A DNA stretch of 62,372 bases from an uncultured virus (IMG/VR IMGVR_UViG_3300032212_000001). Its lineage: Duplodnaviria; Heunggongvirae; Uroviricota; Caudoviricetes. The stretch lies in IMG/VR virus record IMGVR_UViG_3300032212_000001, one strand, 5' to 3'. Every line of letters starts with the position of its first letter. Position 1 is the stretch's first letter. The notes beneath the pieces are model-generated. The model saw only the letters and a program-made list of their open reading frames with translations, was not told where the DNA came from and ran no database searches. Below are positions 19,501 to 42,092 of this stretch, piece after piece. The position numbers and the translations under genes were made by a program.

Positions 19501-22500
19501 CGCTCGGCCAAGTGGCGTAAGTTCCAGCGCGGTGAGTTCGATGTTGTGATCTTGACCTATGAGAGCTTGGCTTTGACTCGTGTTGACGAAGAGCATTTGA
19601 ATGACTATGTAGAGCGCACTTCGGCGATCAAGAAGAACATCGCAATCGCCCAGGCCGAAGCTCGCAAGAAGAAAGAATCAGATCCAAACAAGGCTCTTTC
19701 AGAGCGTGAAGAAGCTATTCTCGAAGAGGGCGTTGGTGCCTTTGTTGCAGAGAAACTTGAGCTTGGCGGCAAGCGAAAATACGACCCTGGTATTCAGTGG
19801 GACGAGCTTGGTATTGATTTCCTAATGGTTGATGAAGCCCAGAACTTCAAGAACCTCTATATGCCTCAAGCGGGAACAGGTAACAAGGTTCCCATGTATA
19901 TGGGTTCTGAGGGGAAAGGTTCCAAGAGAGCTTGGCAACTTGATTTCCGTTGCGAGCTTACAAGAAGACAGGCTGAGAGACGCCCTGGCGGAAGCCGAGG
20001 AAATGGCATCGTTCTATTGAGCGCGACACCGGCCAAGAACTCGCCTCTCGAATTTTACAATCTGATTCAATACATCGATCATGAAGTTTGGGCTCGGAGG
20101 GGAATCGTCGATCCACAGCAATTCGTTTCTCGGTATTGTGATTTCCGAACGGATCTCACTGTGAGCACGACTGAGCAGAAGGTTGTTTCACGGGAAATGC
20201 TTGTTGGTTTCAAGAACCTTCACGAGTTGCGCGATGTGATTTTCCGTTATGGCGAGTTCAAGAACGCCGATAGCCCTGAAGTCAAGAGTATCATTGTTGT
20301 TCCGAAGGCTAAGGTTTATCGTCATGAAGTTGAGATGGACGATGTTCAAGCGGAAGAATACGTGAGACTTCGGGCGGATATGGAAGAGGCTATCGAAGAG
20401 TCTAAAAAGAAGATGGCTATGAGTGGAGGCCAGGGCGACAATAGCATGAAGGGTCGTATCTTGCAGATCATGAGCATGATGAGCCTTGTCTCTCTCCATC
20501 CTTTGCTTGTGGATTCTCGGTTGAAGTCTGACGACGACCTTTCGACCAACGAAGACGGTAAGAAAAAGAAGAGGAGTCTTTCAAGCAAGGAAGTTGTGAA
20601 GAAAGCTTCAGCCATTCCAATGGTCGAGCAGCGGTCGGAGAAGCTTGACCAATGCGCCCGTGTTATTTCTCAATGCAGAGAGAACAGACCTGATTGCGGT
20701 CATATCATCTTTGTGGAGAACGTTGCGGTTCACGTATGGATGAAGAACATTCTGGCGGCTGGTATTACTGTTGAATACGCCCCTGACCCTTCCAAGCCTA
20801 ATATTACAAGGCCATACAAGTGTATTAAGGTTCCTCCAGAGCGAATTGCAATACTTAACTCGGTTGAAGCCAAGGGAGACTTGCAGAGGCAAGAGATTGC
20901 GGAGCACTTCAATGGAGATTCAGCGGAGGGTGTGAAGCCAAAGTATGACATTGTTATCGCTAACAAGATCGCATACGAAGGGGTGGACCTTCAAAAGCGC
21001 ACCTGTGCGATCCATCACCTGGACTTGCCCTGGGAGCCAGCAACGCTCCAGCAACGCAATGGCCGAGGCGTGAGGCAGGGCAATGACATTGTTAAAGACG
21101 GTGAAGGGGAAATCAACTTTGTTGGTTTGCATTACTACATCACCGGAGGGACTATGGACGGTTCCAGGTTCCAGGCTATTCGCTTGAAGGCTGGGTGGAT
21201 GAGTGGACTCATAGAAGGTGAGAAACGCAACACTAACAACCCAGCGGCGGATTCGGATGCAGACGAGACGAATTGGCTTGTCTTGACCGCTGCTAATCCA
21301 GAGGAAGCTAGAGAAGCTATTGAGAAACGCAAGAAGATATTCCTTGAGCAACAAAGGGCTGTCGAGCTTGCTGCGTTGTTGAAAGACTTCCGTGAAGCAG
21401 AAAACGCTTTCCGTGCAATGGAAAGGATCGTCAATCCCAAAGCTCTTGAAAGAAAGCGCAAAGCAGCCGAGTCTTATGTTGAGCGTATGAATCGTCGTGT
21501 CTCTACGAATCCGGGGCTGTGGTCCTTCTATGACATCGCTGTTTCAAAGGTAAGAGATCAGCCTGTTGTGATCGTTGGAGGGGAAGAGCCTAATACCCAG
21601 ATTTATCCTGTGTGGGAAGGTTTGCGTATTGCTTCCGATGAAGGAACTCTTTATGAGATCGGCGTGATCCATTCTTATGGAACGATGAAGGATTCTGTTG
21701 GTCTTCGGTATTATGAAGGCTCGGTCGGTGTTGATAAGATTCGACACCAATCCTTCGAGTCCGTTGACTACAACAAGTTTGAAGACTTTGTTAAGAGCGA
21801 GATCGAATCTCGTCATTACGATCCAGAGCAGTGGCCTGAGTATGATTGGGCCTTGTATGAGAAAGAGAATCTGTCCGATTCTGCTCGATATCGGACCCTT
21901 GCTCTCGCTTGCATTGGTCAATATACGCCCCGCTGGCTTGTGAAGAAGGTTTGGGCGAGATACAGCGATCAATTGACGAAGGTTTTGGGTGACGACGATT
22001 GGAGAGGGCCATTCACTTGGCAGTCAAAGAGATACGTCCCAATTTGGTGGCGGAACAAGCATAAGAAAAAGGACTTCTTTCTTACAACTCTCGACAACGC
22101 CAGTAAGGGGGACTCTTACGAAATCATCCCGCCGACAAAAGAGGGTTTTGAGCTATTCAAGAAATACTTCGGCATTGACGGCAAGAGGGACGGTCGCTTG
22201 AGTAGGGCACAGGCTCAAGACATAGTTTCTATGTGGTGGGGCTACGGCTTTATTCTTCCTTACGGACTTCGCAACAAGGACAAGAAGAAGAACCCCTTGG
22301 TCCTTGCAGGGAATCCTGTCGGTTCATATGGTGCTGAAGACATTGTTACAGGAAGGGCCGATGATAGAGCTTTTGATCTGGAGGATCTGTCTCCAGGCAA
22401 TGATTCTTCATACAAAGCGGCCAAGAACGCAGTAAAGAGACGTTATGGCGATCCAGACATTGCAGTCGAGGTTGATTTGCCCAATGAGATCTCAGAATAT

Positions 22501-22719
22501 CTAGCAGCAGTCGGTGAATTGGTTCGAGTAGAATACTTAGCGGCTGATGGACGTGGTAAAAAAGTTTTTCAGTGGTATCACGATATGGGCGATCAGGGTG
22601 AAGATAAAGAGCCTACTTCGCCTCCTATTCTTGCATGGGACGCTAAGGGGAAGTTCTTTGTTATTGCGCCTCAGAAGGGTTCTAAGCCTAGATTCACATA
22701 CCGAGGTATTATGGGTTGA
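16510..22719 (+). CDS. DarB-like N6-adenine methyltransferase / SNF2 helicase fusion
   Basis: YSGWGG, EYYTP, LEPAAGVG and SNPPY (MTase), then FDVGLGKT, DEAQ, LSATP and QRNGRGVRQGN (helicase), the architecture of phage P1 DarB. Confidence 0.9.
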   Translation: MSAVEKARKLANAPAGKVVDLLRVYVAKRMTGFSSAEFAHYFEMFRDRLVSLVERKQAAIRLKLGMSDPASLTEKVESFQDLSMVPTRDLRKDVPSYAIPAEITGEKKRERHNLEAMRLVTSKSPSGMTDEDKTVLAAYSGWGGLSIAKNDDEMEKILPAGFRPEKRGLIHEYYTPPHLAEDLARFMSTIINDLYEKHGEPLVCLEPAAGVGRFIRAFRDEDSGLPDQSWTAVEYSKVSASILQGLGIADHAVHSSFERWADTNEDLYRKNVHLVVSNPPYGKRGVSIKEDTDAISTEERRRAYAYFLRRGLDFLAPGGIGVMLIPAGFMTGDVNGVAGTLRRRVLSEYHVLGAFRLPSKLFPGANLVTDLIIFRSRGGQVTGSLKGIDDTVVSGKYFEHYPERILGIEENSSKAGETEEHKAKGRWAYKIHFANADFYDVGDKIYKEDGSFRVAKKQTYLGGSFDGFPPSFNTHTMESYDLIDPKKRKKTSSSTGLGKRKLTDKQRAQQKGSFDDHIYQAAELGVRYNRYFAQVAVDDPEAEDSWLELKEAFESWIDIQGEEGRPRNPWGDPSLTVALKKNKRKDDLQTFLSAFESNGMFVKSFSDKPVIQKAFSLNPNDVVSQADELFRRRQELTVVELFNYHVDIGGPYDTMALFRRGALPILYKAGWAHDGNSWDELVPSDSYYVGDLNPKLFRARDAAKKGLVNAVEQRDKLVEIIGWEDIGDIDMNPSHGWLPIDVIEQFVNEKIIDVIDEKYPGDNQPKKLYKDEDGLIKIEGVDYLEMKSLAKVKDKINRETRDFVGYLNHDKQRFSPYQPEVRILVGDEWKWVPENIEIVKKRKMAEWEPMFESFVKQDVAISEKVEKVYNSLFKGFIHPTFSGEPLSVARWKSKDKGGRDLYPYQAQAARRVIKNRGGLIAFDVGLGKTYTGLAVLARARQEGWAKRPVILVPKHITWKWYKDIRTVLPDYRIGVIGSEKYTNRKGEVISRLESKEERSAKWRKFQRGEFDVVILTYESLALTRVDEEHLNDYVERTSAIKKNIAIAQAEARKKKESDPNKALSEREEAILEEGVGAFVAEKLELGGKRKYDPGIQWDELGIDFLMVDEAQNFKNLYMPQAGTGNKVPMYMGSEGKGSKRAWQLDFRCELTRRQAERRPGGSRGNGIVLLSATPAKNSPLEFYNLIQYIDHEVWARRGIVDPQQFVSRYCDFRTDLTVSTTEQKVVSREMLVGFKNLHELRDVIFRYGEFKNADSPEVKSIIVVPKAKVYRHEVEMDDVQAEEYVRLRADMEEAIEESKKKMAMSGGQGDNSMKGRILQIMSMMSLVSLHPLLVDSRLKSDDDLSTNEDGKKKKRSLSSKEVVKKASAIPMVEQRSEKLDQCARVISQCRENRPDCGHIIFVENVAVHVWMKNILAAGITVEYAPDPSKPNITRPYKCIKVPPERIAILNSVEAKGDLQRQEIAEHFNGDSAEGVKPKYDIVIANKIAYEGVDLQKRTCAIHHLDLPWEPATLQQRNGRGVRQGNDIVKDGEGEINFVGLHYYITGGTMDGSRFQAIRLKAGWMSGLIEGEKRNTNNPAADSDADETNWLVLTAANPEEAREAIEKRKKIFLEQQRAVELAALLKDFREAENAFRAMERIVNPKALERKRKAAESYVERMNRRVSTNPGLWSFYDIAVSKVRDQPVVIVGGEEPNTQIYPVWEGLRIASDEGTLYEIGVIHSYGTMKDSVGLRYYEGSVGVDKIRHQSFESVDYNKFEDFVKSEIESRHYDPEQWPEYDWALYEKENLSDSARYRTLALACIGQYTPRWLVKKVWARYSDQLTKVLGDDDWRGPFTWQSKRYVPIWWRNKHKKKDFFLTTLDNASKGDSYEIIPPTKEGFELFKKYFGIDGKRDGRLSRAQAQDIVSMWWGYGFILPYGLRNKDKKKNPLVLAGNPVGSYGAEDIVTGRADDRAFDLEDLSPGNDSSYKAAKNAVKRRYGDPDIAVEVDLPNEISEYLAAVGELVRVEYLAADGRGKKVFQWYHDMGDQGEDKEPTSPPILAWDAKGKFFVIAPQKGSKPRFTYRGIMG

Positions 22720-22868
22720 GTAAAGGAAAACGCTTTCCTTTACTCTTTACTTTTTTTGATAGAAAACAAAAAGTTTTGGTTGACTTGGAAGTTTCCTGTT
22801 AAAAGAATACCTATTGAACAAGCAAGTTTAGGGAATACTTTCCCTTTAGTCCGACTGGAGATTTTTTG

Positions 22869-24140
22869 ATGGCTTTTGTTCTCGGTGTCAGAGACGTTGC
22901 GCCAAATCCCAAGCCTAAAAAGCAGGGGAAGAAGCGTAGTAAGAAGCCGCGAAGTTCGGCACAAAAAGAAAACGACAAGAGGCTCGGAGAAATGGCGAAA
23001 GCAAGAGCGAAAAAGAAAAACGCCGCTGCTCCCAGGAAGCCAAAGGGTAAGTCCACTTCAAAAGCGGCTCCCAAAAAGGCTACCAAGAAAGCAGCGCCTA
23101 AAAAGGCTATGCCGACGAAGGCTGAGAAGGACGCTGCTAAAAAAGCAGGTGTTCGTCTTACCAACAAAGACGGCAGTTATAAGTCAAAAGGCCAGTTGGC
23201 TAACTCGATGCGTCTTTCAAAGCAGCGTAAGGGTAAGAAGCCCCCTGCTGCTAAAAAGAAAGCCGCCCCGAAGAAGAAAGCTTCCACCCGGAAGAAGCCC
23301 GCGAAGAAAAAGGCTGTCAGCACGACAAAGCGCGTTTGCAAGACGACTAAGGGTCGTGGCGACAAAGGCACAACGACAACCACTGTTCGCGTGACAAAGA
23401 AGAATCCTAAGAAGGGCGCGGCGAAGAAGAAATCTTCGGCTCGTGGTTCTGCAAAGAAGAAGAACCCCACAAAGAAGAAGAATCCGGTCCTTGACCAAAA
23501 GATTCCCTTCATGCCTTTGACCGTTCGCGAAAGCGCCACCATGGTCGGAGCCTTCACTGGCCTTGAGATCATCAATCGCACCGTTTTCGATGAGCGTTAT
23601 CGCTACTCGAAGTATGGCGGATTGCTCAAAGCAGGTTCCGGTGCTGCGGCTGCACTTCTCTTGCAGAAGTTCGGTGGCAAGACAGGTCGCCAGTTTGTGA
23701 AGCCCGTTGCTTTGGCGACAGTCTTCCACGCAGGAGCACACATCGGCTACTTCCTCGCGAACGCTTTCTCGATGAAGATTGCCCCACTCCTCCGTAGTCC
23801 TTGGATTAAATCCAAGCCTCCGGTTCCTCAGTCTGACGACATGGGAAATTGGGGATACGACGAGCGTTACAATTACTCCGGCCCTCTTGGAGAGGAAACT
23901 TACCCAACAATGGGTGAGGACACCTATCCTTCTCTGGGCGAGGAGACCTATAACACTGTGGGAGAAAGCTCCTACGGAACTATGGGTGAAGATCAGTACA
24001 GTAGCATTGGATGTGATTCCTATGCTCCTTACGGAGCCCCAGCGTTGAACGGGGTTGACTTTGGGGCAGACGCCCCGTCGCACCTTTCCGGCGCGATGTT
24101 CGACACTGCTGACGTTCCAGGTCACCTCTCGGGGATTTGA
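22869..24140 (+). CDS. Lys-rich (histone H1-like) membrane-anchored putative virion core protein
   Basis: K/A/P-rich N-half with repeated KKNP, 2-3 hydrophobic helices and an acidic repeat tail. GGAG precedes ATG 22869; an alternative ATG at 22992 also has GGAG. Confidence 0.7.
   Translation: MAFVLGVRDVAPNPKPKKQGKKRSKKPRSSAQKENDKRLGEMAKARAKKKNAAAPRKPKGKSTSKAAPKKATKKAAPKKAMPTKAEKDAAKKAGVRLTNKDGSYKSKGQLANSMRLSKQRKGKKPPAAKKKAAPKKKASTRKKPAKKKAVSTTKRVCKTTKGRGDKGTTTTTVRVTKKNPKKGAAKKKSSARGSAKKKNPTKKKNPVLDQKIPFMPLTVRESATMVGAFTGLEIINRTVFDERYRYSKYGGLLKAGSGAAAALLLQKFGGKTGRQFVKPVALATVFHAGAHIGYFLANAFSMKIAPLLRSPWIKSKPPVPQSDDMGNWGYDERYNYSGPLGEETYPTMGEDTYPSLGEETYNTVGESSYGTMGEDQYSSIGCDSYAPYGAPALNGVDFGADAPSHLSGAMFDTADVPGHLSGI
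23886..24023 (+). repeat. About six degenerate 24-nt (8-aa) tandem coding repeats
   Basis: LGEETYPT-MGEDTYPS-LGEETYNT-VGESSYGT-MGEDQYSS-IGCDSY. Confidence 0.85.
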
Positions 24141-24146
24141 GTGAAA

Positions 24147-24170
24147 GGGGGTGATCTTTTGATTGCCCCC
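24147..24170 (+). other. Intergenic RNA hairpin
   Basis: GGGGGTGATC-TTTT-GATTGCCCCC (with G-U pairs); no U-tail. Confidence 0.55.
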
Positions 24171-24250
24171 AATGATTCAGATCTCTTTGAGATTTCCTAG
24201 ATCGTCTTTAATGAAATTAACTTTGTTTTTGGAGAAAAAAGGAGAAGCAC

Positions 24251-24799
24251 ATGGCTTCCGCAACTACACTTGGTAAAGGTCGCGCCGGTTTTAAGCCTCG
24301 TCATGCTGAAAAACGGCGTATTCAGTATCGTCCCAAATGGGATCGTCAGCGCATCGCTGCCCAGGCTTCGAGCGAGATCCAATTCTTTCGCAACACTTCG
24401 GCCAATCGCCTGAAGAACAACCTCGATCAAGCTGGCGTTGTCAGCGTGTATGAGGCAATGGTCATCAAGCGCTTGCTGTTCATTCCTCTCTACGGAACTT
24501 CTGAAGCTGAAGTCATCGAGTTGTTCAACAACAGCCTCGTCGAGCTTCACATCCAGAACGACCGCGCCTATGAGTTGGCCCTCATCACTCAGCAGTCCGG
24601 TATCGGCCTTGTCGGCGGTTCTGTTGTGAGTGCCGGTGAGCCCGCTGTCGGCAAAGCCTCCAGCATCGGTCAAGTCGTCATTGGTGGGGGAATCAGCTTC
24701 TTCATCATGCTGAAGTTCCCAGGCGGCGCAATCAAAACTCAGAATGACATCATTCTGAAGTGTCAGCTTGAGACCATGAACGACGTGACTATGGGTTGA
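24251..24799 (+). CDS. Putative major capsid protein, single jelly-roll type
   Basis: 182-aa beta-rich protein with a double GGAG RBS, a U-rich leader and hairpins on both sides; heads the structural cluster. The fold and role are inferred, not matched to a database. Confidence 0.5.
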   Translation: MASATTLGKGRAGFKPRHAEKRRIQYRPKWDRQRIAAQASSEIQFFRNTSANRLKNNLDQAGVVSVYEAMVIKRLLFIPLYGTSEAEVIELFNNSLVELHIQNDRAYELALITQQSGIGLVGGSVVSAGEPAVGKASSIGQVVIGGGISFFIMLKFPGGAIKTQNDIILKCQLETMNDVTMG

Positions 24800-24968
24800 T
24801 CGTTCTCTCGAACGATTCCCCCGTTATCATTTCGGAAAACGCTTTCTTTTCTATCTCACTTGAGACTTATCAAGGAAAGCGTTTTCCAGTCCTTCACAAT
24901 GAAATTCTCAGCTTTTCGCAACGAAGGGCGGGAGGCGCAAAGAGCCAACCGTTCCTTCGTTGTTTTTG
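24799..24968 (+). terminator. Hairpin cluster / attenuator after the putative capsid gene
   Basis: ATCGTTC-TCTC-GAACGAT; long stem GGAAAACGCTTTC...GAAAGCGTTTTCC (24834-24887); AACGAAGGGCGG...CCGTTCCTTCGTT followed by a T-rich run. Confidence 0.55.
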
Positions 24969-24986
24969 TTTAGAGGAAGGTGACTA

Positions 24987-26144
24987 ATGACAAGCATCCT
25001 TAGCGATGATAAAAACGCACCACCACCTCTCTTCCCCCTTTCTCTTTGCGACGAAAGAAAGCCTTTCCATGTCACGTTCTCCGGTGGAAGACCGGATGGC
25101 GGCGGCGGTGGGTCTGGTGTCGTTTCGCGGCAGAATTTCCGTCAACGCATTGCCCTCGATACAGCCTTTTATGGCATGTTCGCCGAGGTCATTGTTGAAG
25201 ACGCTTCTGGTGTTCGCGACTCCCTTTCTTTTGGTATTAACTTTCGCTCCCAAAGAGATCAGCAGTGGTGGTTTCATACACCAAGGCAAGGGGAAGGATC
25301 TTTGGTCCCTGGGGCTCTAGTCGCTGGTAGTGTCGGCGAGCCTATGATTTGGGATGCTCCTAAGATTCTGAGGCGTGGTGAAACACTCGAATTAGAAATC
25401 GCTGGTGACGACGGGCTAGCTGGCTTTGTTGACATTTGCCGATTCAACATAACACTCTTAGGGGCTCGTCTTGACGTTGACAATGCAGGTCAAGCAGTAA
25501 GAGACCCTCTCATGGCTTGGGATCGTCGCGATGTTGGTTACACTTCAATCGTCTTTGACTATCTCAACTGCGAGCGCTCCGGCCAGCGTTGTTTCCCTGG
25601 ACCTGAAGTATCGACTTCCATAGCCATTGGTCAGCTTCCCTACGACTTACTCGTGAGTGAAGGATCTTTGATTGTTGTTGAGCCAGGGACTAAATACACG
25701 CCTGTCAGTGACGTGCGTGGTGAGTTGCGATTGCGTGACACGTCCTTTACTCATGACCTTGTTGGAAACAATGGATTTATTCCATTCTCCTACTTTGGTG
25801 GTCAGACTAAATCAGCGACAGCATTGGCGCAACTGGTAAGACCGATGGCGAGTCCTTTGGGATCTCGTTGGAGGCTTCGCCAGGACTCGACCATTGAGCT
25901 TTTCGCTCGATCCATTGATAGTCCGACCCTTGAGTCTTTCAACGTCATGATGGCCTTGCACGGTCAACGAACGAGAGTTTATGGTCGTCCTCAAACGGCT
26001 AAAGAACTTGCGAATCGTCCTTGCCCGCCTGATGGCTATGACTACCCTAAAGGCCCCTGGGCTCAGAACCGTCAGATTATTGAGGATCACCCTCGTAATA
26101 ACGGTCATGATCCAAGGAGTTTTAACCGGCTTCCGCCACAGTAA
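24987..26144 (+). CDS. Putative capsid-associated protein with two tandem beta-sandwich (jelly-roll-like) halves
   Basis: Internal duplication: ILRRGETLELEI..FNITLLGAR versus RLRQDSTIELFA..FNVMMALHGQR. Confidence 0.55.
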   Translation: MTSILSDDKNAPPPLFPLSLCDERKPFHVTFSGGRPDGGGGGSGVVSRQNFRQRIALDTAFYGMFAEVIVEDASGVRDSLSFGINFRSQRDQQWWFHTPRQGEGSLVPGALVAGSVGEPMIWDAPKILRRGETLELEIAGDDGLAGFVDICRFNITLLGARLDVDNAGQAVRDPLMAWDRRDVGYTSIVFDYLNCERSGQRCFPGPEVSTSIAIGQLPYDLLVSEGSLIVVEPGTKYTPVSDVRGELRLRDTSFTHDLVGNNGFIPFSYFGGQTKSATALAQLVRPMASPLGSRWRLRQDSTIELFARSIDSPTLESFNVMMALHGQRTRVYGRPQTAKELANRPCPPDGYDYPKGPWAQNRQIIEDHPRNNGHDPRSFNRLPPQ

Positions 26145-26160
26145 GGGTAAGGAGTGAAAC

Positions 26161-26850
26161 GTGCGTTCCGCATTAAGACATAAGCTCATTTCTAAACCGG
26201 CGGAACCTTGTGAAGCCGTCGAGGAAGAGCTTGAGCAAATCTCTGTCGCTTGGGGTATGCCGAACACAAGGAAAGGGAAGTGGGCTCGCGCCTACGTCCC
26301 TTGTCCTCACCCGGAAGATCCAAGCCGGGACGAGTTCACTAAACCTTGGGCACCTGGAGATCCACAATCCGACCGCAATATGGCGCGGCCTAATCACGGT
26401 TACGGCGTTTGGGATGGTTATTCACTCTCTGCTCCAGAAGCGCGGTTGCGTGGCACCAGGAGCTTCTTTAAGCACTCAGGAATGGTTGAGCTTCCTGATG
26501 GTGGTTCGGCAATACTTCTGTCCTTTACGGTCCCTGAAAATCGCGAAGGACGGGTTCTAGAATTGGCCGGTCAAGAAATCCTTGGAACAGACCTTGGATC
26601 AGACTTGACTTGGGAAATACTTTTCAATAGCTCAACAAGACCAGAGATATGTAAATGGGATGGCATATGGTCTTCTTTAGAACATCCAAGAAAAATTGTT
26701 CTCAATTTACCCTCTTCGGGTATAGTGAGTATTCGTTGCACGGCACCTGTCGGTCCTGGCCCAAGAAAAGTTCAAGCTTTTATAAATGGTTTGACTTTCC
26801 CAATCATGTTTGGTAGTGGTCGTGTAAGTGCTGGTTGGGAAGAAGTTTAA
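26161..26850 (+). CDS. Putative minor capsid protein (C-terminal beta-sandwich)
   Basis: AAGGAG RBS with GTG start; beta-strand pattern LSFTVP..LTWEILFN..VQAFINGLTFP; sits in the structural cluster. Confidence 0.5.
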   Translation: MRSALRHKLISKPAEPCEAVEEELEQISVAWGMPNTRKGKWARAYVPCPHPEDPSRDEFTKPWAPGDPQSDRNMARPNHGYGVWDGYSLSAPEARLRGTRSFFKHSGMVELPDGGSAILLSFTVPENREGRVLELAGQEILGTDLGSDLTWEILFNSSTRPEICKWDGIWSSLEHPRKIVLNLPSSGIVSIRCTAPVGPGPRKVQAFINGLTFPIMFGSGRVSAGWEEV

Positions 26851-26902
26851 TCTTCCTATCCTGCTTATCTTTTTTTATAGCTTTTGTTTTTGGAGAAAAA
26901 CG

Positions 26903-27307
26903 ATGCATTTGAAAGCTGATTATCTACAAGTTGGCGACGACGCCATTAACGCCGTCGCTGGTGGTGGTGGCGACTTGAGCGCCCCTGCTGTGACCCTTAA
27001 AAAAGGGACTGTCTGGGAAGTCGTCGGCAAACACGCTGGCCTTATCGGTGCCGCTGGCACTGAGCGCGGAAGCGTTTTCCTCAAGAAGAGCACTGGCGAA
27101 GTCTTGGCTCGTCTTTCTGCCGATGGCGCTGGTCCTACCTCGCTTCAGCAAAACTTGAACGACCCCCTCGATATCATCGGTCCCTTCGACAACGACACCG
27201 ACGTTCTGCTCGGCGTTGACAATGCCGTGCCCGATCCTCTCGCCGCTCACGCCAAGTTTGTCTTGAAGCGCATGATCGCCAACCCGGACACTGCCAGCTA
27301 CGTCTGA
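26903..27307 (+). CDS. Putative virion structural protein (134 aa, beta-rich)
   Basis: Same TTTGTTTTTGGAGAAAAA leader as the 24251 gene; followed by a terminator. Confidence 0.6.
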   Translation: MHLKADYLQVGDDAINAVAGGGGDLSAPAVTLKKGTVWEVVGKHAGLIGAAGTERGSVFLKKSTGEVLARLSADGAGPTSLQQNLNDPLDIIGPFDNDTDVLLGVDNAVPDPLAAHAKFVLKRMIANPDTASYV

Positions 27308-27381
27308 TTAAAAGTCGGGAGTAAAACCCTGACTTTTAAAGTGATAATCAAGCCCTAGCCCTAATGGGCTGGGGCTTTTTT
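27308..27381 (+). terminator. Hairpin plus Rho-independent terminator
   Basis: TTAAAAGTCGGG..CCCTGACTTTTAA, then AGCCCTAGCCC-TAAT-GGGCTGGGGCT-TTTTT. Confidence 0.85.
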
Positions 27382-27425
27382 GTTAATCTGATTTTTTCAA
27401 TATCCAAATAATGAAGGAGAGAACT

Positions 27426-27551
27426 ATGAGTCTCACAAGAGCGAAGGATCGCAAAAACCGTAAAGATCGCTTGGCAAAAGCCGCTAAGGAAGCCAAGAAG
27501 ATCAAAAAACCAACCCCTCCTGCAAAGCCTCCGGCCAACCCACAAGGTTGA
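27426..27551 (+). CDS. Small basic peptide (41 aa), absent from the ORF track
   Basis: AAGGAGA RBS; MSLTRAKDRKNRKDRLAKAAKEAKKIKKPTPPAKPPANPQG. Confidence 0.7.
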   Translation: MSLTRAKDRKNRKDRLAKAAKEAKKIKKPTPPAKPPANPQG

Positions 27552-27594
27552 AAGTCTGAGTCAGTAGAAAACGCTTTCCACGAAAAGGTGAATT

Positions 27595-28035
27595 ATGACG
27601 CTTACAAAACCACCCCCGAAGGGATCGGCTGGGGCACCAGGGACGCCTGGGGGCACGATCATTATTGATTCTTTCGTCCCAGGTCTTGCAATCGGAGATG
27701 TGGCTTATATCACTCCTGCGGGCGCTGCCGACAAAGCTTGCGCTTTGGACCCTGAAAAGATCCCCGCGATTGGTGTTGTAGCCGCTGTTAATTCGCCCTC
27801 GGCTGGCAAGTGTGAGATTACAACAGATGGCGTCGTCTCTTCTGTTGGCCCTCAACCTTACGTCGCTTCAGACGAATACATAGTCTCGCGAGATCCCGGT
27901 AAAGTTGTAAACCAGGAAGACATCGGAAACCCAAACTACCCTCAATCTGGAGATTACCTCCAGAAAGTCGGCCTTGGTTTGGCAGCGACAACTTTCTGGG
28001 TAAGACCGGATCAGACGGCTATTCAGTTGAACTAA
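27595..28035 (+). CDS. Capsid decoration/fibre-base-like protein (DUF2190-like pattern)
   Basis: GDVAYI..ADKA..PAIGVV..ITTDGVV; resembles the C-terminal domain of the 28185-30740 fibre. Confidence 0.55.
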   Translation: MTLTKPPPKGSAGAPGTPGGTIIIDSFVPGLAIGDVAYITPAGAADKACALDPEKIPAIGVVAAVNSPSAGKCEITTDGVVSSVGPQPYVASDEYIVSRDPGKVVNQEDIGNPNYPQSGDYLQKVGLGLAATTFWVRPDQTAIQLN

Positions 28036-28077
28036 GCGTGGGATAGTGTTTTAATTCACTACCCTGCGCCCTTGTTC

Positions 28078-28150
28078 GCTCTCAAGCGTGAGTGACGCAC
28101 ACTGTTACTTTTTTTTGACAGTGGAGCCGGTTCGATCCCGGTTGGGAGTA
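28078..28150 (+). ncRNA. Atypical tRNA-like cloverleaf (73 nt)
   Basis: Acceptor GCTCTCA/TGGGAGT+A; D-like GCGT-GAGTG-ACGC; 8-bp CACTGTTA/TGACAGTG stem with CTTTTTTT loop; T-arm GCCGG-TTCGATC-CCGGT; no CCA. Confidence 0.65.
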
Positions 28151-28184
28151 TGTAAACAAAGCTTTGTTTTTTTTTGGAGGAAAA

Positions 28185-30740
28185 ATGTCAGTACGCGCTT
28201 TACGCAGAGTTGCAAATAAGGCGCACCAAATCGAAATTTCTGATTCAGAAACAATGTTTGCCGGGGGAGTTGACGTATCTGCGGCTGCTGCGGCTGTGGT
28301 CTTCCCGACCGCTACAACATTGACGATTGGTGGGGCCTCGACCGAGAACAATTTTTCCGGTGACTTGAACGCTGATGGAGGTATCGACAGATCTTCCGCC
28401 GCTGCTCTTGATATCGCCGGGTCTGGTGCCAACGCGACGAGCGTTAATCTTGGAACGGGTGATGCCGTGACAGGAGTAACTGTTGGTGGTGGCGCTGGTT
28501 ATACAGGATCGACGATTGGTAAGTCCGGTGAAACGGACACCATTCTTGGCGACCTTGTTATCAATGGAAACTTGACCATCGCCGGAGACGCTTTTCAGGG
28601 CGCTGTGGAGAACAGCGCCTACGCTGATAATCATCTCTACCTCAACGCTGGTTATGAGACCACTTCAGCCCAGACCGCTGGTCTTGTCGCGAATTACTTG
28701 CCTTTGGCAACGAATGATACTGTTGCTGCCACTGGCTTTGTTGCTGGTATCGCCGCGACATCGAATCCGACTGTTGCAACCACAGGAGCGGCGACGTTCT
28801 CCGTGGGTCAGCTTATCCAGATTTCTGGTGCTGACAATGCCAATAACAACGGTGTCTTTGAGGTCTTGAGCCATGCTGCAAACCTCTTGACCATTCGCGG
28901 TGTTGGAACAACAGCGACAGTCGAAGACTTCACGAACAATCAGTTCACCACAGACACGACTGTTGCCGGAACTATTCGTCAAGTCAGCGTGAGCGTTATG
29001 CGCTCAGGTGTTGACGGTCTTTGGGAGACGGCTCAGGGCTCTGTGACAGGTCTTACATTCGCTGACCTTGCGACTGCCGCTGGATCGACTCTTCAGAGCG
29101 CCTACAGTGCTTCTGGAGCCCCTGCGACAATCACGACGGACGCGACTAACGACGAATTTACCGTGGCCGGGACTGCTGGCCTTTACGTCACTGGAACTGG
29201 AGCCGACAACGCAACAGCCCCCGTGGGCTTTGGCTTTGTTGTCGATACTACAGGCGCTTATCGTCTCGATTCGGACGCTGCTTCGAACATGAACGTCACG
29301 GGTGCAAATCTTGACGTGACAACAACTACTTCGGGCGCGATCAATGTGAGTTCCGCTGGAGCTTTGAATCTTGACTCGGCCAGTGACGCTTCTATCAATT
29401 CGAGCGCTGGCAATGTCAACGTTGCGAATGACGCTGTTGCTCAAACGGTAAACGTAGCAACGGGAGCCGCCGCCAAGACCGTTAATATCGGATCTCAAAC
29501 GGGCGCTTCAAGCGTGACGATTGATTCAGGGACCGGCGCGATCAATGTTGGAACGGGAGGGCAAGCTCGCTCGATCAACATTGGAACGGGTGCCGCTGCT
29601 CAAACGCTTGTTTTCGGATCAACTGACACGACTTCCAGTGTCACGATCAACGCGGGAACGGGTAACATCGACATTGGAACGACCGCTCAGGCTCGCACCG
29701 CGAATTTTGCGACTGGTGGCGCTGCCCAAACGGTGACTGTTGGCTCGACCAATGGCGCGTCTTCAATGACGATTGACGCTGGCACAGGAACGATCTCTAT
29801 TGGAGGCAGTGCTTCGGCTCGCGCAATCAATATTGGAACGGGTGCCGCTGCTCAAACGGTTGCTGTTGGATCTCAGAATGGTGCTTCGAGCCTCACTCTC
29901 GATTCTGGAACCGGAAATATCAACATCGGAACGGGAGCCCAGGCTCGCTCGATTAACGTCGGAACGGGTGCCGCTGCTCAAACGGTTGTTGTTGGATCTC
30001 AGACCGCTGGTTCTGCCACAACAATTGATTCTGGAACCGGAAATATCAACATCGGAACCACTATTGCCAAGACCATCGCTATCGGTAACACGACCGGCGC
30101 AACGGCTCTTGACTTTGATGCTGGAACAGGTGGCGTTTCCATTAATGCAACAGCCGGTGGCGATATCGCCTTGACCGTTGCATCCGACGCGGCAAGCGAT
30201 GTGACTTTTGCGGCTCATGGTTCGGGAGCGATCCCATTCAACAGCGCAACGGCTGGTCAAACGACTCTCAACGGTTCTTTACCGCAGAACGTTATTGGTG
30301 CGATCAATACGATCTTCACAGGTTCTTCCTCGGCTGGTGTTGTCAGTAACGCTGTGACCGCTGGCGCGGCGTTGGCTATCGGTCAGTGTGTTTACACGAC
30401 GACGACTGACGACCGTGTTGATGTGACCGACGTATCGACTGACACGGCTGCATCTGAGTTCATTGGAATCTGCACGACGGCAGCGGCTTCGGCTGGTGAT
30501 CCCGTGACGGTTGCAACACAAGGACTCATTGACGTTCAAGTGGAAGCCGCTACATACGTTTCTGGTGACGCCATCTATCTCTCGGCTGCTACAAACGGTC
30601 GGGCCACTAGAACGGCTCCCTCGGCGTCTGGGAACGTTGTCTTCCGAATCGGTTTCGCGCAAACGGATATTGGTGTGAAAACGGCTGGTCAAACAGTCAA
30701 GATTCACATTGCCCGCGCTGTTCGGTTCACGCTGGTTTGA
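28185..30740 (+). CDS. Long G/A/T/S-rich beta-helix fibre/spike protein
   Basis: GGAGG RBS; 38-aa repeats; C-terminal decoration-like domain. Confidence 0.75.
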   Translation: MSVRALRRVANKAHQIEISDSETMFAGGVDVSAAAAAVVFPTATTLTIGGASTENNFSGDLNADGGIDRSSAAALDIAGSGANATSVNLGTGDAVTGVTVGGGAGYTGSTIGKSGETDTILGDLVINGNLTIAGDAFQGAVENSAYADNHLYLNAGYETTSAQTAGLVANYLPLATNDTVAATGFVAGIAATSNPTVATTGAATFSVGQLIQISGADNANNNGVFEVLSHAANLLTIRGVGTTATVEDFTNNQFTTDTTVAGTIRQVSVSVMRSGVDGLWETAQGSVTGLTFADLATAAGSTLQSAYSASGAPATITTDATNDEFTVAGTAGLYVTGTGADNATAPVGFGFVVDTTGAYRLDSDAASNMNVTGANLDVTTTTSGAINVSSAGALNLDSASDASINSSAGNVNVANDAVAQTVNVATGAAAKTVNIGSQTGASSVTIDSGTGAINVGTGGQARSINIGTGAAAQTLVFGSTDTTSSVTINAGTGNIDIGTTAQARTANFATGGAAQTVTVGSTNGASSMTIDAGTGTISIGGSASARAINIGTGAAAQTVAVGSQNGASSLTLDSGTGNINIGTGAQARSINVGTGAAAQTVVVGSQTAGSATTIDSGTGNINIGTTIAKTIAIGNTTGATALDFDAGTGGVSINATAGGDIALTVASDAASDVTFAAHGSGAIPFNSATAGQTTLNGSLPQNVIGAINTIFTGSSSAGVVSNAVTAGAALAIGQCVYTTTTDDRVDVTDVSTDTAASEFIGICTTAAASAGDPVTVATQGLIDVQVEAATYVSGDAIYLSAATNGRATRTAPSASGNVVFRIGFAQTDIGVKTAGQTVKIHIARAVRFTLV
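29390..30140 (+). repeat. About 6-7 degenerate 114-nt (38-aa) tandem coding repeats
   Basis: SxTIDSGTGxINIGTGxQARSINIGTGAAAQTVxVGS repeated; GGAACGGGTGCCGCTGCTCAAACG recurs exactly. Confidence 0.85.
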
Positions 30741-30815
30741 TAAGGATCATGCGAGGCAGTTTTTTGGTAACATGACTGCCCATGGCTTCTTTCTTTAGGA
30801 GCTGTTATCCAAGAG

Positions 30816-30849
30816 AAGCAGGAAGGGTTGTCCTTCCTGCTTTTTTTTT
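30816..30849 (+). terminator. Rho-independent terminator
   Basis: AAGCAGGAAGG-GTTGT-CCTTCCTGCTT-TTTTTTT. Confidence 0.9.
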
Positions 30850-30904
30850 GGCATAATGCTTACCTCGTAATCGGATAACAGCCAAAAAGAAAAGAGTTTT
30901 CGTC

Positions 30905-31471
30905 ATGAGTAACAATAGAAGGCGCAAGAAACCCAGCAATAAAAGGGTTCAAAAAGCGGCAATGAGAAAAAGCCAAAAAGCGGCTAGTGCCGGTCCTGTT
31001 TCTGCGACGGAGAAGAAGTCACTAGAACAGATGGAAGCTGAAGAAAAAAAGATACCGGGTGTTTGGTATCCGGCTTCCAAACAACAAGGTTTGGCTGGCG
31101 ATCTTGTGAACGCTCTCAATACGATTTCTTCACTCCGCAACGTAGTTGCTGGCCTTCATGACCAGCTTGCTGCGTCGAACAAGACAAACGCTGAGTTCCA
31201 AAGACAGCTTACCCTTTTGCAGACGGATGGTTTTCTTGAAAGAGTCGGCCTGAAGAATTGCGAAATGCGTATCGACCAACAAGGTCAATGGGTGTTTACG
31301 CCCAAGAAAGCGGAGGAAAACGTCGTCGATCTTGAAAAAGATTCAGTCGAGTATGACGAAGAATACGACGGCGACGAATACGATGACGAAGAAGAGCCGA
31401 TCCCCGAAGATCCTCCTGAAGTCGTCGTAGAGGCCAGCAAAGAAAAGGCAAAAGCGCCTCAAAAGGTTTAG
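30905..31471 (+). CDS. Hypothetical protein (basic N-terminus, coiled coil, acidic tail)
   Basis: 188-aa ORF between two terminators. Confidence 0.75.
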   Translation: MSNNRRRKKPSNKRVQKAAMRKSQKAASAGPVSATEKKSLEQMEAEEKKIPGVWYPASKQQGLAGDLVNALNTISSLRNVVAGLHDQLAASNKTNAEFQRQLTLLQTDGFLERVGLKNCEMRIDQQGQWVFTPKKAEENVVDLEKDSVEYDEEYDGDEYDDEEEPIPEDPPEVVVEASKEKAKAPQKV

Positions 31472-31492
31472 GAAAGCGTTTTCCTTACTGTG

Positions 31493-31530
31493 AAATGAAA
31501 GAGTGGCTTGGCGGCTGCTCTTTCATTTTT
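31493..31530 (+). terminator. Rho-independent terminator
   Basis: AAATGAAAGAGTGGCT-TGGC-GGCTGCTCTTTCATTT-TT. Confidence 0.8.
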
Positions 31531-31598
31531 CGTTGTAAGCGTAGTTCCTTGCTCCTACAATGATCGGGAAACTACGAAAAGAACATTGGAGGTCTATT

Positions 31599-32111
31599 AT
31601 GGCTCGTCCTTACATCGAGCGTGGACACTTTGATCGTGCTGGCCGTTGGCACCCTGACAGTGGACCTCATATGGGTGAAGCTTCCGGTCCAGAGGGCTAC
31701 CCCGATTTCAGTCAAGCATTTCAGGACATTGGAAGCAACTTCGTTGACAACGTGAATCAAGCGGCGACGAAGGGCGTCATGAGTGCTGCTCATGTAAGAG
31801 TCCGGTCTCAGATAACGCCTGACTTGAATGTCAACCTTCAAGACGTTGTTGGTCAGATGGATAAAAAGGACGACCAGGGTTCGTCCGAGGCTGGCCCCGG
31901 TTTGTTCGGACAGGCAACCCACTGGTTTCTGAAAAACATCGCTCGTCCAGAGGTCGAGTTGAATGTTTTAGGAACAAAACGGATTATTGCACCTTGGGGA
32001 AGGCCAGAAAGAGATTATACTGCCGCTTTCTGGATTACTATGGCAGCGGGATTTGGCAGTGTCGCCTACCTTGGTTACAAAGCTATCGGACGTGTGCAGA
32101 GAGGTCAGTAA
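31599..32111 (+). CDS. Putative virion membrane protein, C-terminal TM helix
   Basis: GGAGG RBS; AAFWITMAAGFGSVAYLGY followed by a basic tail. Confidence 0.7.
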   Translation: MARPYIERGHFDRAGRWHPDSGPHMGEASGPEGYPDFSQAFQDIGSNFVDNVNQAATKGVMSAAHVRVRSQITPDLNVNLQDVVGQMDKKDDQGSSEAGPGLFGQATHWFLKNIARPEVELNVLGTKRIIAPWGRPERDYTAAFWITMAAGFGSVAYLGYKAIGRVQRGQ

Positions 32112-32518
32112 TGCCTTCCTTTAAGATTCTCGGACAAACAAATGCTTCTCCTCTTGTTCCACAGAGGCTTGCTGTCCCCCCCGCTGGAGACGATAAGGTT
32201 GAATCCGTATTCAAGGGGGCCGTTGACAAGGTTTCCATTGAAAACGCGGATCGCAATATTCACGTCTGGGGAAAAGCTCAGGCTGTTGGTGCTGAAGCTG
32301 TTGTGAGGGTGCATTTCTACGACGAGAACGACGCTTTCATGTTCCCGTCAGAAGAGGTGACAATCACAACCATCGACCATACGGTCAGTGTAGCGACGGC
32401 TGGTCACAACAAGACGACTGCCCATGTCACATTCATGAACCCTGGCGCGAGATATTACAGGATTTTTGTAGTATCAGCCACGGCTACATTTGATGTCTTT
32501 GGAGGTCGCCAGCCATGA
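32111..32518 (+). CDS. Putative structural protein (beta-rich, 135 aa)
   Basis: TAATG overlap with the previous gene; alternating beta pattern. Confidence 0.65.
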   Translation: MPSFKILGQTNASPLVPQRLAVPPAGDDKVESVFKGAVDKVSIENADRNIHVWGKAQAVGAEAVVRVHFYDENDAFMFPSEEVTITTIDHTVSVATAGHNKTTAHVTFMNPGARYYRIFVVSATATFDVFGGRQP

Positions 32519-33009
32519 GTCACTTCGCTACTGTCCAACTTCGCGGTCTTAGCAAGGGGGCCATCGACCACTTTCTCCGTCAAGCGGGAGTCGGAAGTGG
32601 CGGTTCTCCGGCTTCCTCCGGTTCTGTCCTCATGCGTTATGCGGCAAGGGCGGCTGTCCCTGCCGGTGGAACTCGATACCTTGATATTCTGCGGGGTATT
32701 CCAACAAGTGTCCTTGGTGACAGTATTACGGCAGCGGGAACCTTGAAGGGAATTGTTATTGGGGTGAATAACGCCGAGAACAATATCACTGGTAATGATT
32801 ATATCCTTGAGGTTTGTAGCAATCCGGCTGCGCCGGTTGTTTTGCAGAGCTTGTCTTTCCCTAAAGGTCTTAAGCGAAGGACGCAGCGTGGATTTACTGA
32901 CGCGATCCCTGCCGGTACTGAGCTTTGCGTAAGAATGAGACGGACAAGTGGGTCTGGCGGCAGTGCTTTTAATCGAATCGTTTGCGTCTTGGAGTATGTC
33001 TTGCCATGA
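32515..33009 (+). CDS. Putative spike/vertex protein
   Basis: ATGA overlap; C-terminal beta-sandwich resembles that of 34760-35350. Confidence 0.6.
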   Translation: MSHFATVQLRGLSKGAIDHFLRQAGVGSGGSPASSGSVLMRYAARAAVPAGGTRYLDILRGIPTSVLGDSITAAGTLKGIVIGVNNAENNITGNDYILEVCSNPAAPVVLQSLSFPKGLKRRTQRGFTDAIPAGTELCVRMRRTSGSGGSAFNRIVCVLEYVLP

Positions 33010-33791
33010 GCCGAAAGCTTATTATCAAGAGCAATCCAGCGACTTTGGCGAATGTTCTTATTCGCGATCTGGGTTTCGATGTTACATTTGGCGGGGCTTC
33101 CCCATTCGTTGAACTTTTGGATACAGAAGAGATCGCAGAAGCTTCAGCGAGCGAAGATCTTAGGACTTTGACGACCGATGACGCTTTTGGAGTGAACTCT
33201 TCGACGTTGATTTTGAATAACGGCGTAGACGACATTCCCCAGGGCGATATCGATGCCTTCCTCGCTGGTATTGAAACAGAGCCTTTGCATAACTTCGACG
33301 CAAGCGGCCCTCCCCAACTAACCGACGACCAGGACAAGGGTTATTCTTCGGGTTCTCAATGGATTGACAAGTCCCAGGTTCCACCAGATATCTACATGTG
33401 CGTTGGTGCTGCGAGTGGTGCCGCTGAATGGCAAGCAATTGGTGGGGGCATGGCCGCATCGGGTAACGAAGAAGCCCTGACCATTGATTTCGCTTTTGGC
33501 GATGTTTCTCCAAAGATCGTTGGGATACTGAATCCAGGCGATATTGTCATTAACAGCGAGCTTGACATTATCACGCCATTTAATGATCCAGCGGCCTCTT
33601 TAGCCCTGGGGACAATCGCGGTCCCCGGAAGGTTTCTAGGGACAAATGAAAGTCAGCCTGATGTCGGTGGAAACTACGTCAATCAGTCAAACTTCCCAAT
33701 GACTGTAGCTGAACAGTGTCGCCTGACCATAAGTCCTGGTACTTCTACGCAGGGGATCGGAAGAGTTGTCGTAACAGTAAGAAGGGCTTGA
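33006..33791 (+). CDS. Putative spike/fibre adaptor protein
   Basis: ATGA overlap; PPQLTDDQDKGYSSGSQWID fibre-type module; shares domains with neighbouring genes. Confidence 0.6.
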   Translation: MSRKLIIKSNPATLANVLIRDLGFDVTFGGASPFVELLDTEEIAEASASEDLRTLTTDDAFGVNSSTLILNNGVDDIPQGDIDAFLAGIETEPLHNFDASGPPQLTDDQDKGYSSGSQWIDKSQVPPDIYMCVGAASGAAEWQAIGGGMAASGNEEALTIDFAFGDVSPKIVGILNPGDIVINSELDIITPFNDPAASLALGTIAVPGRFLGTNESQPDVGGNYVNQSNFPMTVAEQCRLTISPGTSTQGIGRVVVTVRRA

Positions 33792-33834
33792 CGTTTAAGC
33801 CCTATTAATCAATTGAAAATAGGAGTTTTTGGAG

Positions 33835-42009: not shown

Positions 42010-42039
42010 AAAGCGGGAATTATTCCCGCTTTCTTTTTT
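42010..42039 (+). terminator. Rho-independent terminator
   Basis: AAAGCGGGAA-TTA-TTCCCGCTTT-CTTTTTT. Confidence 0.85.
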
Positions 42040-42092
42040 GGCACAGCGACTATACTTTTGGTATAAAAATCTCACGGAGATTAGGATTATCA

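Follow-up and report, generated by a model that had tools for sequence, protein, structure and literature searches.

A non-canonical tRNA-like cloverleaf in an inserted spacer between two linked phage genes, a possible processing signal in their message

The DNA analysed here (hereafter the window) is a stretch of 62,372 nt from an uncultured virus of the Caudoviricetes (IMG/VR record IMGVR_UViG_3300032212_000001). It represents half of a 124,372-bp contig from a microbial-mat metagenome, and all open reading frames (ORFs) of note in it lie on the plus strand. Between an ORF for a protein of 146 aa (p146) and an ORF for a protein of 851 aa lies a spacer of 149 nt, and within this spacer the 73 nt at 28078-28150 fold into a tRNA-like cloverleaf, in the following referred to as the element. 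A hairpin (hairpin 1) and a short leader precede the cloverleaf, and a second hairpin running into a series of U (hairpin 3) follows it, just before the Shine-Dalgarno (SD) sequence of the downstream gene. The coordinates of all features are given in Table 1. The stretch holding the element is present in one DNA run, and the contig there is identical and shows no variants.

Table 1. Features of the spacer, its neighbouring genes and the terminator-like sites around them.
Feature	Position	Strand	Description
p146 ORF, 146 aa	27595-28035	+	directly upstream of the spacer
Hairpin 1	28036-28069	+	12 pairs, 1x1 internal loop, 8-nt loop; begins right after the stop codon
8-nt leader CCUUGUUC	28070-28077	+	between hairpin 1 and the cloverleaf
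tRNA-like cloverleaf, 73 nt	28078-28150	+	from sequence reading, folding and the Rfam tRNA model
Acceptor stem	28078-28084/28143-28149	+	7 bp; G-U pair 28078/28149, U-G pair 28082/28145
D arm	28086-28098	+	4 bp, 5-nt loop GAGUG
Long anticodon-like arm	28100-28123	+	8 bp, 8-nt U-rich loop CUUUUUUU
T arm	28126-28142	+	5 bp; GCCGG-UUCGAUC-CCGGU; G53-C61 closes the loop
Hairpin 3 AAACAAAGCUUUGUUU	28154-28175	+	A-U-rich stem of 6 pairs (28154-28169) into nine U (28167-28175)
851-aa ORF	28185-30740	+	ATG at 28185; SD sequence GGAGG at 28176-28180
Intrinsic-terminator-like hairpin	27350-27377	+	12 bp and T run; gap 27308-27594 folds with z = −6.6
Terminator-like hairpin	30811-30852	+	GC-rich stem and nine T; gap 30741-30904 folds with z = −6.6; inverted repeat I11
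Other hairpin plus T-run sites	22718-22745, 31493-31530, 42010-42040	+	terminator-like

In the cloverleaf a single linker base stands on each side of the D arm, and a 2-nt linker (GA) separates the long arm from the T arm. The discriminator is the A at 28150; it is followed by UGU, and hence there is no CCA. The cloverleaf is both the minimum free energy (MFE) structure and the centroid of 28078-28150 (−29.0 kcal/mol, z = −3.64), and only one of 200 shuffled sequences was equally stable. Its 24 pairs (13 G-C, 7 A-U and 4 G-U) include no mismatch. The cloverleaf was retained, flanked by two further hairpins, when the 161-nt context from 28030 to 28190 was folded. If only the inner five pairs of the long arm are taken as an anticodon stem, a variable region of the normal 5 nt (GUGGA) results, but four bases then fall at position 26. 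A first-pass annotation of the DNA, made from the letters alone, had described an acceptor stem, a D arm, an 8-bp arm, a T arm and a discriminator A without CCA, and each of these points was confirmed on the sequence and by folding. The hairpin that it had placed upstream of the cloverleaf is present in both MFE and centroid structure, and the distance of 35 nt that it had given to the next gene start is likewise correct (28150 to the ATG).

In order to judge the fold against chance, two descriptors were run on shuffled sequence. In 3000 dinucleotide-shuffled versions of the window, the strict descriptor (7-bp acceptor, 5-bp T stem, TTCRANY loop, G53-C61 pair) gave 46 matches, or 0.015 per window. 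None of these 46 matches formed a three-hairpin cloverleaf closed by the acceptor, and none reached −29 kcal/mol. The lax descriptor (any 7-bp acceptor, 5-bp T stem, loose T loop, spacing of 30 to 79) gave 107 matches in 300 shuffled windows, 10 of them with inner folds of −13 kcal/mol or better. Since it is so frequent in shuffles, an acceptor plus T arm alone is unconvincing as evidence. We also aligned the Rfam tRNA model, whose positions 1-71 fall on exactly 28078-28150 with 17.9 bits and an E value of 0.097 (89 nt against 4227 families), which rescales to about 0.016 for one family over the whole window. The acceptor and T-arm columns of this alignment are confident, while the D and anticodon regions fit poorly. 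A chance fold in an AT/GC-balanced spacer could draw on the frequency of the lax descriptor and on the fact that the element is single-copy and unconserved, and with very many windows scanned rare chance events will surface. Nevertheless, we regard it as highly improbable, because the strict matches from 3000 shuffles never yielded the cloverleaf, the element is intergenic, on the coding strand and within an inserted spacer (see below), and the tRNA model spans it from end to end. We conclude that the structure at 28078-28150 is very likely real and derived from a tRNA.

Some features of a canonical tRNA are fully developed in the element, namely the 7-bp acceptor with an unpaired discriminator and the 5-bp T stem with a 7-nt T loop closed by G53-C61. 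In the canonical D arm U8, A14 and G18G19 are found, which form the elbow with the T loop; in the element position 8 is A and the GAGUG loop is without GG. The anticodon-like arm exceeds the canonical 5-bp stem by three pairs and the canonical 7-nt loop by one base. While a canonical loop has U33 and a purine at 37, the U run of this loop is not followed by a purine. The variable region has 2 nt. Decoding on the ribosome is implausible under either reading of the long arm.

In agreement with these deviations, ARAGORN with default settings did not call the cloverleaf as a tRNA. With relaxed thresholds it gave a 'tRNA-Asn(gtt)' of 83 nt at 28068-28150, which we rejected as it is another fold and has mismatches. 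The 17.9 bits of the Rfam alignment compare with a gathering score of 29 for RF00005, and Rfam applied to the whole window returned nothing at gathering thresholds and no tRNA match at E values up to 10. The check by tRNA finders and covariance models that the first-pass annotation had proposed was thereby run, with a divided outcome: the tRNA model aligns end to end, but it stays below threshold and ARAGORN makes no call. On the coding strand no Rfam family besides tRNA aligns over the element. Other candidates were rejected as well. For transfer-messenger RNA (tmRNA), the tmRNA mode of ARAGORN was empty for 28000-28250 and there was no Rfam match. An allo-tRNA of the (8/4) or (9/3) type does not fit the 7/5 geometry of the element. 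As to a phage attP core, the element is a full cloverleaf with a 5′ half, and the matches of its 22-mer in eight genome loci (see below) stop at the edge of the pattern; no integrase family matched among the window ORFs scanned.

The intact acceptor, T arm and discriminator could also belong to a working tRNA of non-canonical type, for instance one whose anticodon loop, expanded to 8 nt, decodes A-rich codons or quadruplets, and phages do carry functional odd-shaped tRNAs that finders overlook, as described in the available part of PMC5389517. We hold this to be very hard to credit, given an anticodon stem of 8 bp, which makes the arm three pairs longer, the lack of U8, A14 and G18G19 together with the 2-nt variable region, the score below threshold, and the fact that no relatives are known. 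The terms 'anticodon stem' and 'long anticodon' have no occurrence in the part of that paper at hand.

To trace the origin of the element, a 22-nt segment reaching from the T arm into the acceptor was searched for. With one Y allowed, it was found at eight loci of a species-genome collection, six of which are real tRNA genes by ARAGORN (three tRNA-Thr(GGU), two tRNA-Leu(UAA) and one tRNA-Glu(UUC)), the remaining two being without a call. The single match in IMG/VR was a tRNA-Phe(GAA). As the segment is identical in real tRNA genes, the T-arm/acceptor half is, by its sequence, of working-tRNA quality; it is also generic and gives no pointer to an amino-acid type. The matched tRNAs have the acceptor GCUCCCA/UGGGAGC, and the element is two transitions away from it, a wobble pair being kept at each.

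The first-pass annotation had considered a decayed tRNA-Lys. A tRNA-Lys(UUU) has a 7-nt loop of the CUUUUAA type with the anticodon UUU, plus A73. The element does have A73, and its loop has 8 nt that are all U after the C. The U run and A73 are what the proposal has behind it; the 22-nt matches belong to tRNAs for Thr, Leu, Glu and Phe, none to a tRNA-Lys, and the intact state of 24 out of 24 pairs argues against simple decay.

We then turned to the spacer. Homologues of p146 (30-39% identity) occur in seven related loci (L004, L005, L006, L008, L021, L063 and L070), and in all seven the gene lies directly upstream of a homologue of the 851-aa ORF. The gaps in these loci (3, 9, 12, 22, 36, 38 and 57 nt) hold a ribosome-binding site only. 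The related loci, 82 in number (3 from IMG/VR and 79 from metagenomes), were collected through homologues of the 851-aa protein. A match was present in 81 of them; we dropped those whose 5′ end is open (5), those that lack a start codon (1) or whose start is ambiguous (32), and those in which no ORF precedes the gene (3). In the 40 usable loci the median gap before the 851-aa homologue is 12 nt; it is at most 75 nt in 37 of them, and 84, 241 and 242 nt in the others. In the long-gap loci L056 and L078 the gap does not fold into a tRNA-like or particularly stable structure (z = −0.56 and −1.98), and ARAGORN made no call there. Since the two genes are adjacent (3-57 nt) in all seven relatives, as opposed to 149 nt in the window, the structured spacer is, as judged from this comparison, a lineage-specific insertion. 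The genes for p146 and the 851-aa protein were ancestrally a tightly linked pair, presumably co-transcribed, and their adjacency is conserved among distant uncultured phages.

Searches for relatives of the element itself remained negative. An exact 27-mer of it had no match in IMG/VR. A covariance model built on the single sequence (R1) and run over the window and the 82 loci (661,164 bases) found only the element, with 107 bits, the next-best matches reaching at most 16.3 bits and lying within coding sequence. A loop-conserving pattern occurs at 27 loci of IMG/VR, none of which was matched by R1. With blastn against 50,697 phage records, 10 records were returned, all at E = 6 and with a coverage of at most 19%. 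ARAGORN made two calls on the 79 metagenome loci, neither at this junction, and none in L001-L003. Closer phage relatives were not found either when p146 and a 385-aa protein were used as single queries in IMG/VR. The first-pass annotation had named a lack of conservation in relatives as a point of refutation; formally, this lack is what the 82 loci gave. However, these loci are distant (protein identity at most 57%), and therefore the missing homologues are, on the sequences compared, a sign of a lineage-specific insertion and not of a lack of function.

These results bear on the view that the element is a phage tRNA gene that has been disabled or is decaying, having been picked up between two genes as a 'moron' and having lost its anticodon arm and D loop later on. 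Its absence from all 82 loci and the spacer being a lineage-specific insertion would fit such an origin, as would the failure of tRNA detection and the two acceptor transitions from GCUCCCA/UGGGAGC that both left wobbles. On the other hand, neutral decay would be expected to break pairs more than to make wobbles, and the element has 24 pairs, 4 of them G-U, and no mismatch. Loss of function does not produce a long arm of eight perfect pairs, three beyond an anticodon stem, and the MFE structure is cleanly a cloverleaf. A disabled tRNA gene is in our opinion unlikely, if still worth serious attention, and we judge in the same way its corollary that the element has no selected role and that cleavage of the mRNA, if any, is a tolerated side effect.

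The two hairpins of the spacer differ in type. Hairpin 1 is not followed by a U tract and was not flagged in the terminator scan. Hairpin 3 with its U run looks like an intrinsic terminator of weak type or a leader rich in U, placed right before the ribosome-binding site; the terminator scan, in which at least three G-C pairs are required, did not flag it. In the MFE structure CCUU at 28070-28073 pairs with GAGG at 28177-28180 of the downstream SD sequence and closes the spacer into one multiloop. This pairing comprises only four pairs and is missing from the centroid. Excision of the cloverleaf would part the CCUU and GAGG strands. Within 28036-28184 there is no promoter-like (sigma-70-like) site and no flagged terminator site. 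A promoter inside the element was considered because of a perfect TTGACA at 28115-28120 and rejected, as no −10 hexamer lies at 16-18 nt. Extra copies or an operator-like repeat were also rejected: the inverted repeat CACTGT...ACAGTG occurs nowhere else in the window, and the element is not a member of any repeat family.

One may ask whether the spacer is a cis-regulator of the 851-aa gene, acting by partial termination at hairpin 3 and its nine U or by the CCUU/GAGG pairing over the SD sequence, with the cloverleaf as a scaffold only. The pairing with the SD bases in the MFE structure of 28030-28190 and the position of the nine U right before the SD sequence are in line with it, and terminator-like hairpins do punctuate the late genes (24 sites found in 22000-34000 versus 14.0 expected). 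The pairing is, however, short and not part of the centroid, the A-U-rich stem of hairpin 3 fails the terminator scan, and the canonical T loop and the 7-bp acceptor are left unexplained. We therefore consider regulation of this kind very unlikely.

We tentatively favour the view that the element is a tRNA-derived, non-decoding RNA that is co-transcribed with both genes and excised by RNase P and RNase Z, by which the message is split; we would put its probability somewhat short of an even chance. RNase P and RNase Z measure the stack of acceptor and T arm, and the coaxial acceptor and T stem of 12 bp with an intact T loop have the geometry of an RNase P/Z substrate. A 73-nt cloverleaf would have come within an insertion of 149 nt, structured as hairpin, cloverleaf and second hairpin with U run, that now separates two putative virion genes. 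Since it has no promoter of its own, it would be transcribed as part of the message for p146 and the 851-aa protein. As an acceptor stacked on a canonical T arm is the recognition unit of RNase P and RNase Z, the host enzymes should cut at 28077/28078 and past 28150, which would free an RNA the size of a tRNA (about 73 nt) and leave the message in two parts. The upstream mRNA would then end 8 nt beyond the stable hairpin 1, and the downstream mRNA would start 3 nt ahead of hairpin 3, the U run and the ribosome-binding site, so that hairpins flank both predicted cut sites. The net effect would be separate fates for two genes that are tightly coupled in the relatives. An mRNA-processing signal had been among the proposals of the first-pass annotation. 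What stands of it is a genuine tRNA mimic or a tRNA-derived RNA with an intact acceptor/T-arm unit, on the coding strand and between linked genes, whereas the cleavage is a prediction from this structure.

Several observations weigh against excision from the message. No homologue of the element was found in any set searched, and hence neither covariation nor evidence of selection. The one run in which the stretch occurs is a DNA run. The relatives express the same gene pair without the element, which shows that it is not needed for the pair in general. Features that favour cleavage by bacterial RNase P include U at position −1, a 3′ CCA and a GG in the D loop through which the elbow is fixed on the T loop. 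In the element base −1 is C, pair 1-72 is a G-U wobble, a 3′ CCA is missing and the D loop is without GG, so that the elbow is weak. The hairpin and U run beside the 3′ end may hinder RNase P, as do terminators in secG-leuU according to the available part of PMC2241853. Furthermore, a functionless relic would be cleaved too, so that cleavage alone is no proof of a selected role, and the processing view and that of a relic overlap.

A more far-reaching version of the processing view is that the cloverleaf is no relic but a mimic made for its purpose: the tRNA body would have been domesticated as a portable 'cut here' module consisting of a stabilising hairpin, an RNase P/Z handle and a leader hairpin, which provides two virion genes with separate mRNA fates, and the released RNA, presenting the CUUUUUUU loop on a rigid 8-bp arm, would in addition serve as bait for a host nuclease or protein that recognizes U-rich anticodon loops of the tRNA-Lys type. 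This is speculative and, to our mind, distinctly unlikely. Alternatively, the excised RNA might be a tRNA-Lys(UUU)-like decoy, which shows CUUUU on a stable, non-decoding scaffold and soaks up a tRNA-Lys-binding protein or a host defence RNase directed against U-rich anticodon loops. The loop starts with CUUUU and the discriminator is A, both of which fit Lys identity, but the loop has 8 nt and carries U at the positions of A37 and A38 of tRNA-Lys. The body shows no similarity to tRNA-Lys, the T-arm/acceptor matches being tRNAs for Thr, Leu, Glu and Phe. Codon demand was uninformative, as AAA makes up only 38-40% of the Lys codons. The giant DarB-like anti-restriction-type genes of the window do point to an investment in counter-defence. 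In the parts of PMC11464382 and PMC10264068 at hand, host defences hit tRNA-Lys and phages respond with altered tRNA-Lys: PrrC and phage anticodon-loop mutations are described (PMC10264068), and the tRNA-Lys of T5 escapes PARIS (PMC11464382). These known answers of phages are, as far as the same texts go, working cleavage-resistant tRNAs, and no described tRNA decoy against anticodon nucleases was present among the literature matches listed. We rate such a decoy as improbable.

The genes on both sides of the spacer were studied by sequence and structure. Pfam and PHROG gave no family for either protein. A model of p146 built with seven sequences had a predicted local distance difference test score (pLDDT) of 65 and a predicted template modelling score (pTM) of 0.51. 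Foldseek with this model returned nothing at E ≤0.001, the best row (E = 0.14) being a capsid chain of YSD1. In a wide structural search the top rows, with Z of 5-7, were nearly all phage capsid decoration, cement or head-fibre-base proteins (BB1, phi29 gp8.5, FCWL1, YSD1, XM1, Pam3, P23-45 and lambda); a Z below 8 may mean merely a common arrangement and is not decisive for p146. The 851-aa protein has 431 homologues with a local identity of at most 57% and belongs to a widespread viral family of unknown function, in which the N-terminal region (residues about 120-310) is conserved. Its ORF contains at least 4-5 tandem repeats of 126 nt (42 aa) with 61-77% identity at 29416-29998. In the Atlas the protein falls into viral clusters, and cement and collagen-like proteins came up as weak leads. 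A sequence search of solved structures with the 851-aa and the 385-aa protein gave chance-level rows only. It is a reasonable guess from these leads that a capsid-decoration protein (p146) is followed by a large surface fibre (851 aa), and the pair may represent a head-decoration module rather than a tail fibre. The labels 'fibre gene' and 'structural operon' of the first-pass annotation could not be confirmed, as there is no Pfam or PHROG family and the leads to capsid decoration or head fibres are weak.

The terminator-like hairpin upstream of p146 probably closes the preceding unit, the unit of the element starting after it and ending probably at the terminator-like hairpin downstream of the 851-aa ORF. 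A TTTTTTGnTAAyn TG-like word (family D12) at 27376, 30760 and 30844 follows three terminator-like sites and may be part of a phage promoter. The 287-nt gap before p146 also contains, just past the strong terminator, a small ORF of about 41 aa, rich in Lys, Ala and Pro (27426-27551, plus strand), with the good ribosome-binding site GAAGGAG.

Elsewhere in the window, three giant ORFs (3071, 2259 and 2069 aa) occupy 16-22719 on the plus strand. The first has a PAPS-reductase-like start, the second carries an SNF2 helicase, and in the third an N6-adenine methylase occurs together with an SNF2/ResIII helicase and DarB-like anti-restriction matches; as a group they resemble a very extensive block for anti-restriction or DNA modification. 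Ten ORFs scanned between 22.8 and 33 kb gave no Pfam or PHROG family, except for a sub-threshold Pfam row for 30905-31471. A match to the PHROG 'virion structural protein' lies at 36665-38146, and the later part of the window contains genes typical of phages (DUF3310, DUF5131, Dam, a Ser/Thr kinase and a nucleoside deoxyribosyltransferase). Auxiliary genes that are unusual for a phage are found among 51533-53674, 60564-61334 and 48076-48924 (plus strand): a 713-aa eukaryotic-type Ser/Thr kinase protein, a fatty-acid-desaturase-family protein and a nucleoside deoxyribosyltransferase fusion. ARAGORN also called a 95-nt 'tRNA-Thr(tgt)' at 50223-50317 on the plus strand; it lies inside the ORF 49667-50362, shows no canonical T loop by eye and has no Rfam tRNA match at E values up to 10. 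This call is probably a false positive, leaving the window without a standard tRNA gene.

A tRNA or tRNA-like fold that marks RNase P and RNase Z cuts in a longer transcript is known from the tRNA punctuation of mitochondrial transcripts and from MALAT1, whose 3′ end carries mascRNA. The cut in MALAT1 is immediately preceded by a stabilising structure, to which hairpin 1 may be likened. These systems are eukaryotic or organellar and conserved, whereas the element is one unconserved phage copy. The tRNA-like domain of tmRNA and the Y-RNA-like (YrlA) mimics share with it a mimic of acceptor and T arm and a long helix where a tRNA has its anticodon arm; unlike in these RNAs, the long arm of the element is closed by a loop, and it has neither a tag reading frame nor a Ro-binding helix.

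Closer in source are the phage tRNAs of the (8/4) allo-tRNA type reported by Mukai et al. 2017 (PMC5389517), which, in the part of the paper available, are likewise tRNA-sized phage cloverleafs with a good acceptor and T arm that finders miss. They differ in their 8/4 or 9/3 geometry, compared with 7/5, the 8-bp stem, the 8-nt U loop, the 5-nt D loop and the 2-nt variable region of the element, and the element is without a family of relatives. Phage tRNA-Lys variants, as described in the portions of PMC11464382 and PMC10264068 consulted, resemble it in being phage RNAs whose anticodon-type loop contains UUU and whose anticodon stem-loop is altered. They are, however, working tRNAs that replace a cleaved host tRNA, while the element cannot plausibly decode. 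If its released RNA acts on tRNA-targeting defences, an RNA decoy would join the known answers to them, that is repair enzymes and cleavage-resistant tRNAs.

The secG-leuU operon of E. coli offers a bacterial parallel. There RNase P separates the mRNA from a co-transcribed tRNA, which alters mRNA stability, and a neighbouring terminator hairpin can hinder the enzyme (PMC2241853, Mohanty and Kushner, in the part available). In both cases a coding message, a tRNA-shaped unit and a hairpin with a U run stand on one transcript, and 5′ cleavage sets, or in the phage would set, the fate of the mRNA. In the E. coli case, as far as that text goes, the tRNA-Leu is a working one and the operon ends there, whereas the element is non-working, is known from sequence only and has a second ORF 35 nt on.

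Among the literature matches listed, no phage example of tRNA-like message punctuation was present. The element is a single unconserved copy and at the same time a well-defined, testable candidate, and it shows that tRNA finders miss such elements. If it is cut as predicted, it would provide a clean natural example from a phage of a tRNA-shaped module that punctuates a protein-coding message, a use of the tRNA shape for which mitochondria, MALAT1/mascRNA and a few bacterial operons provide known cases.

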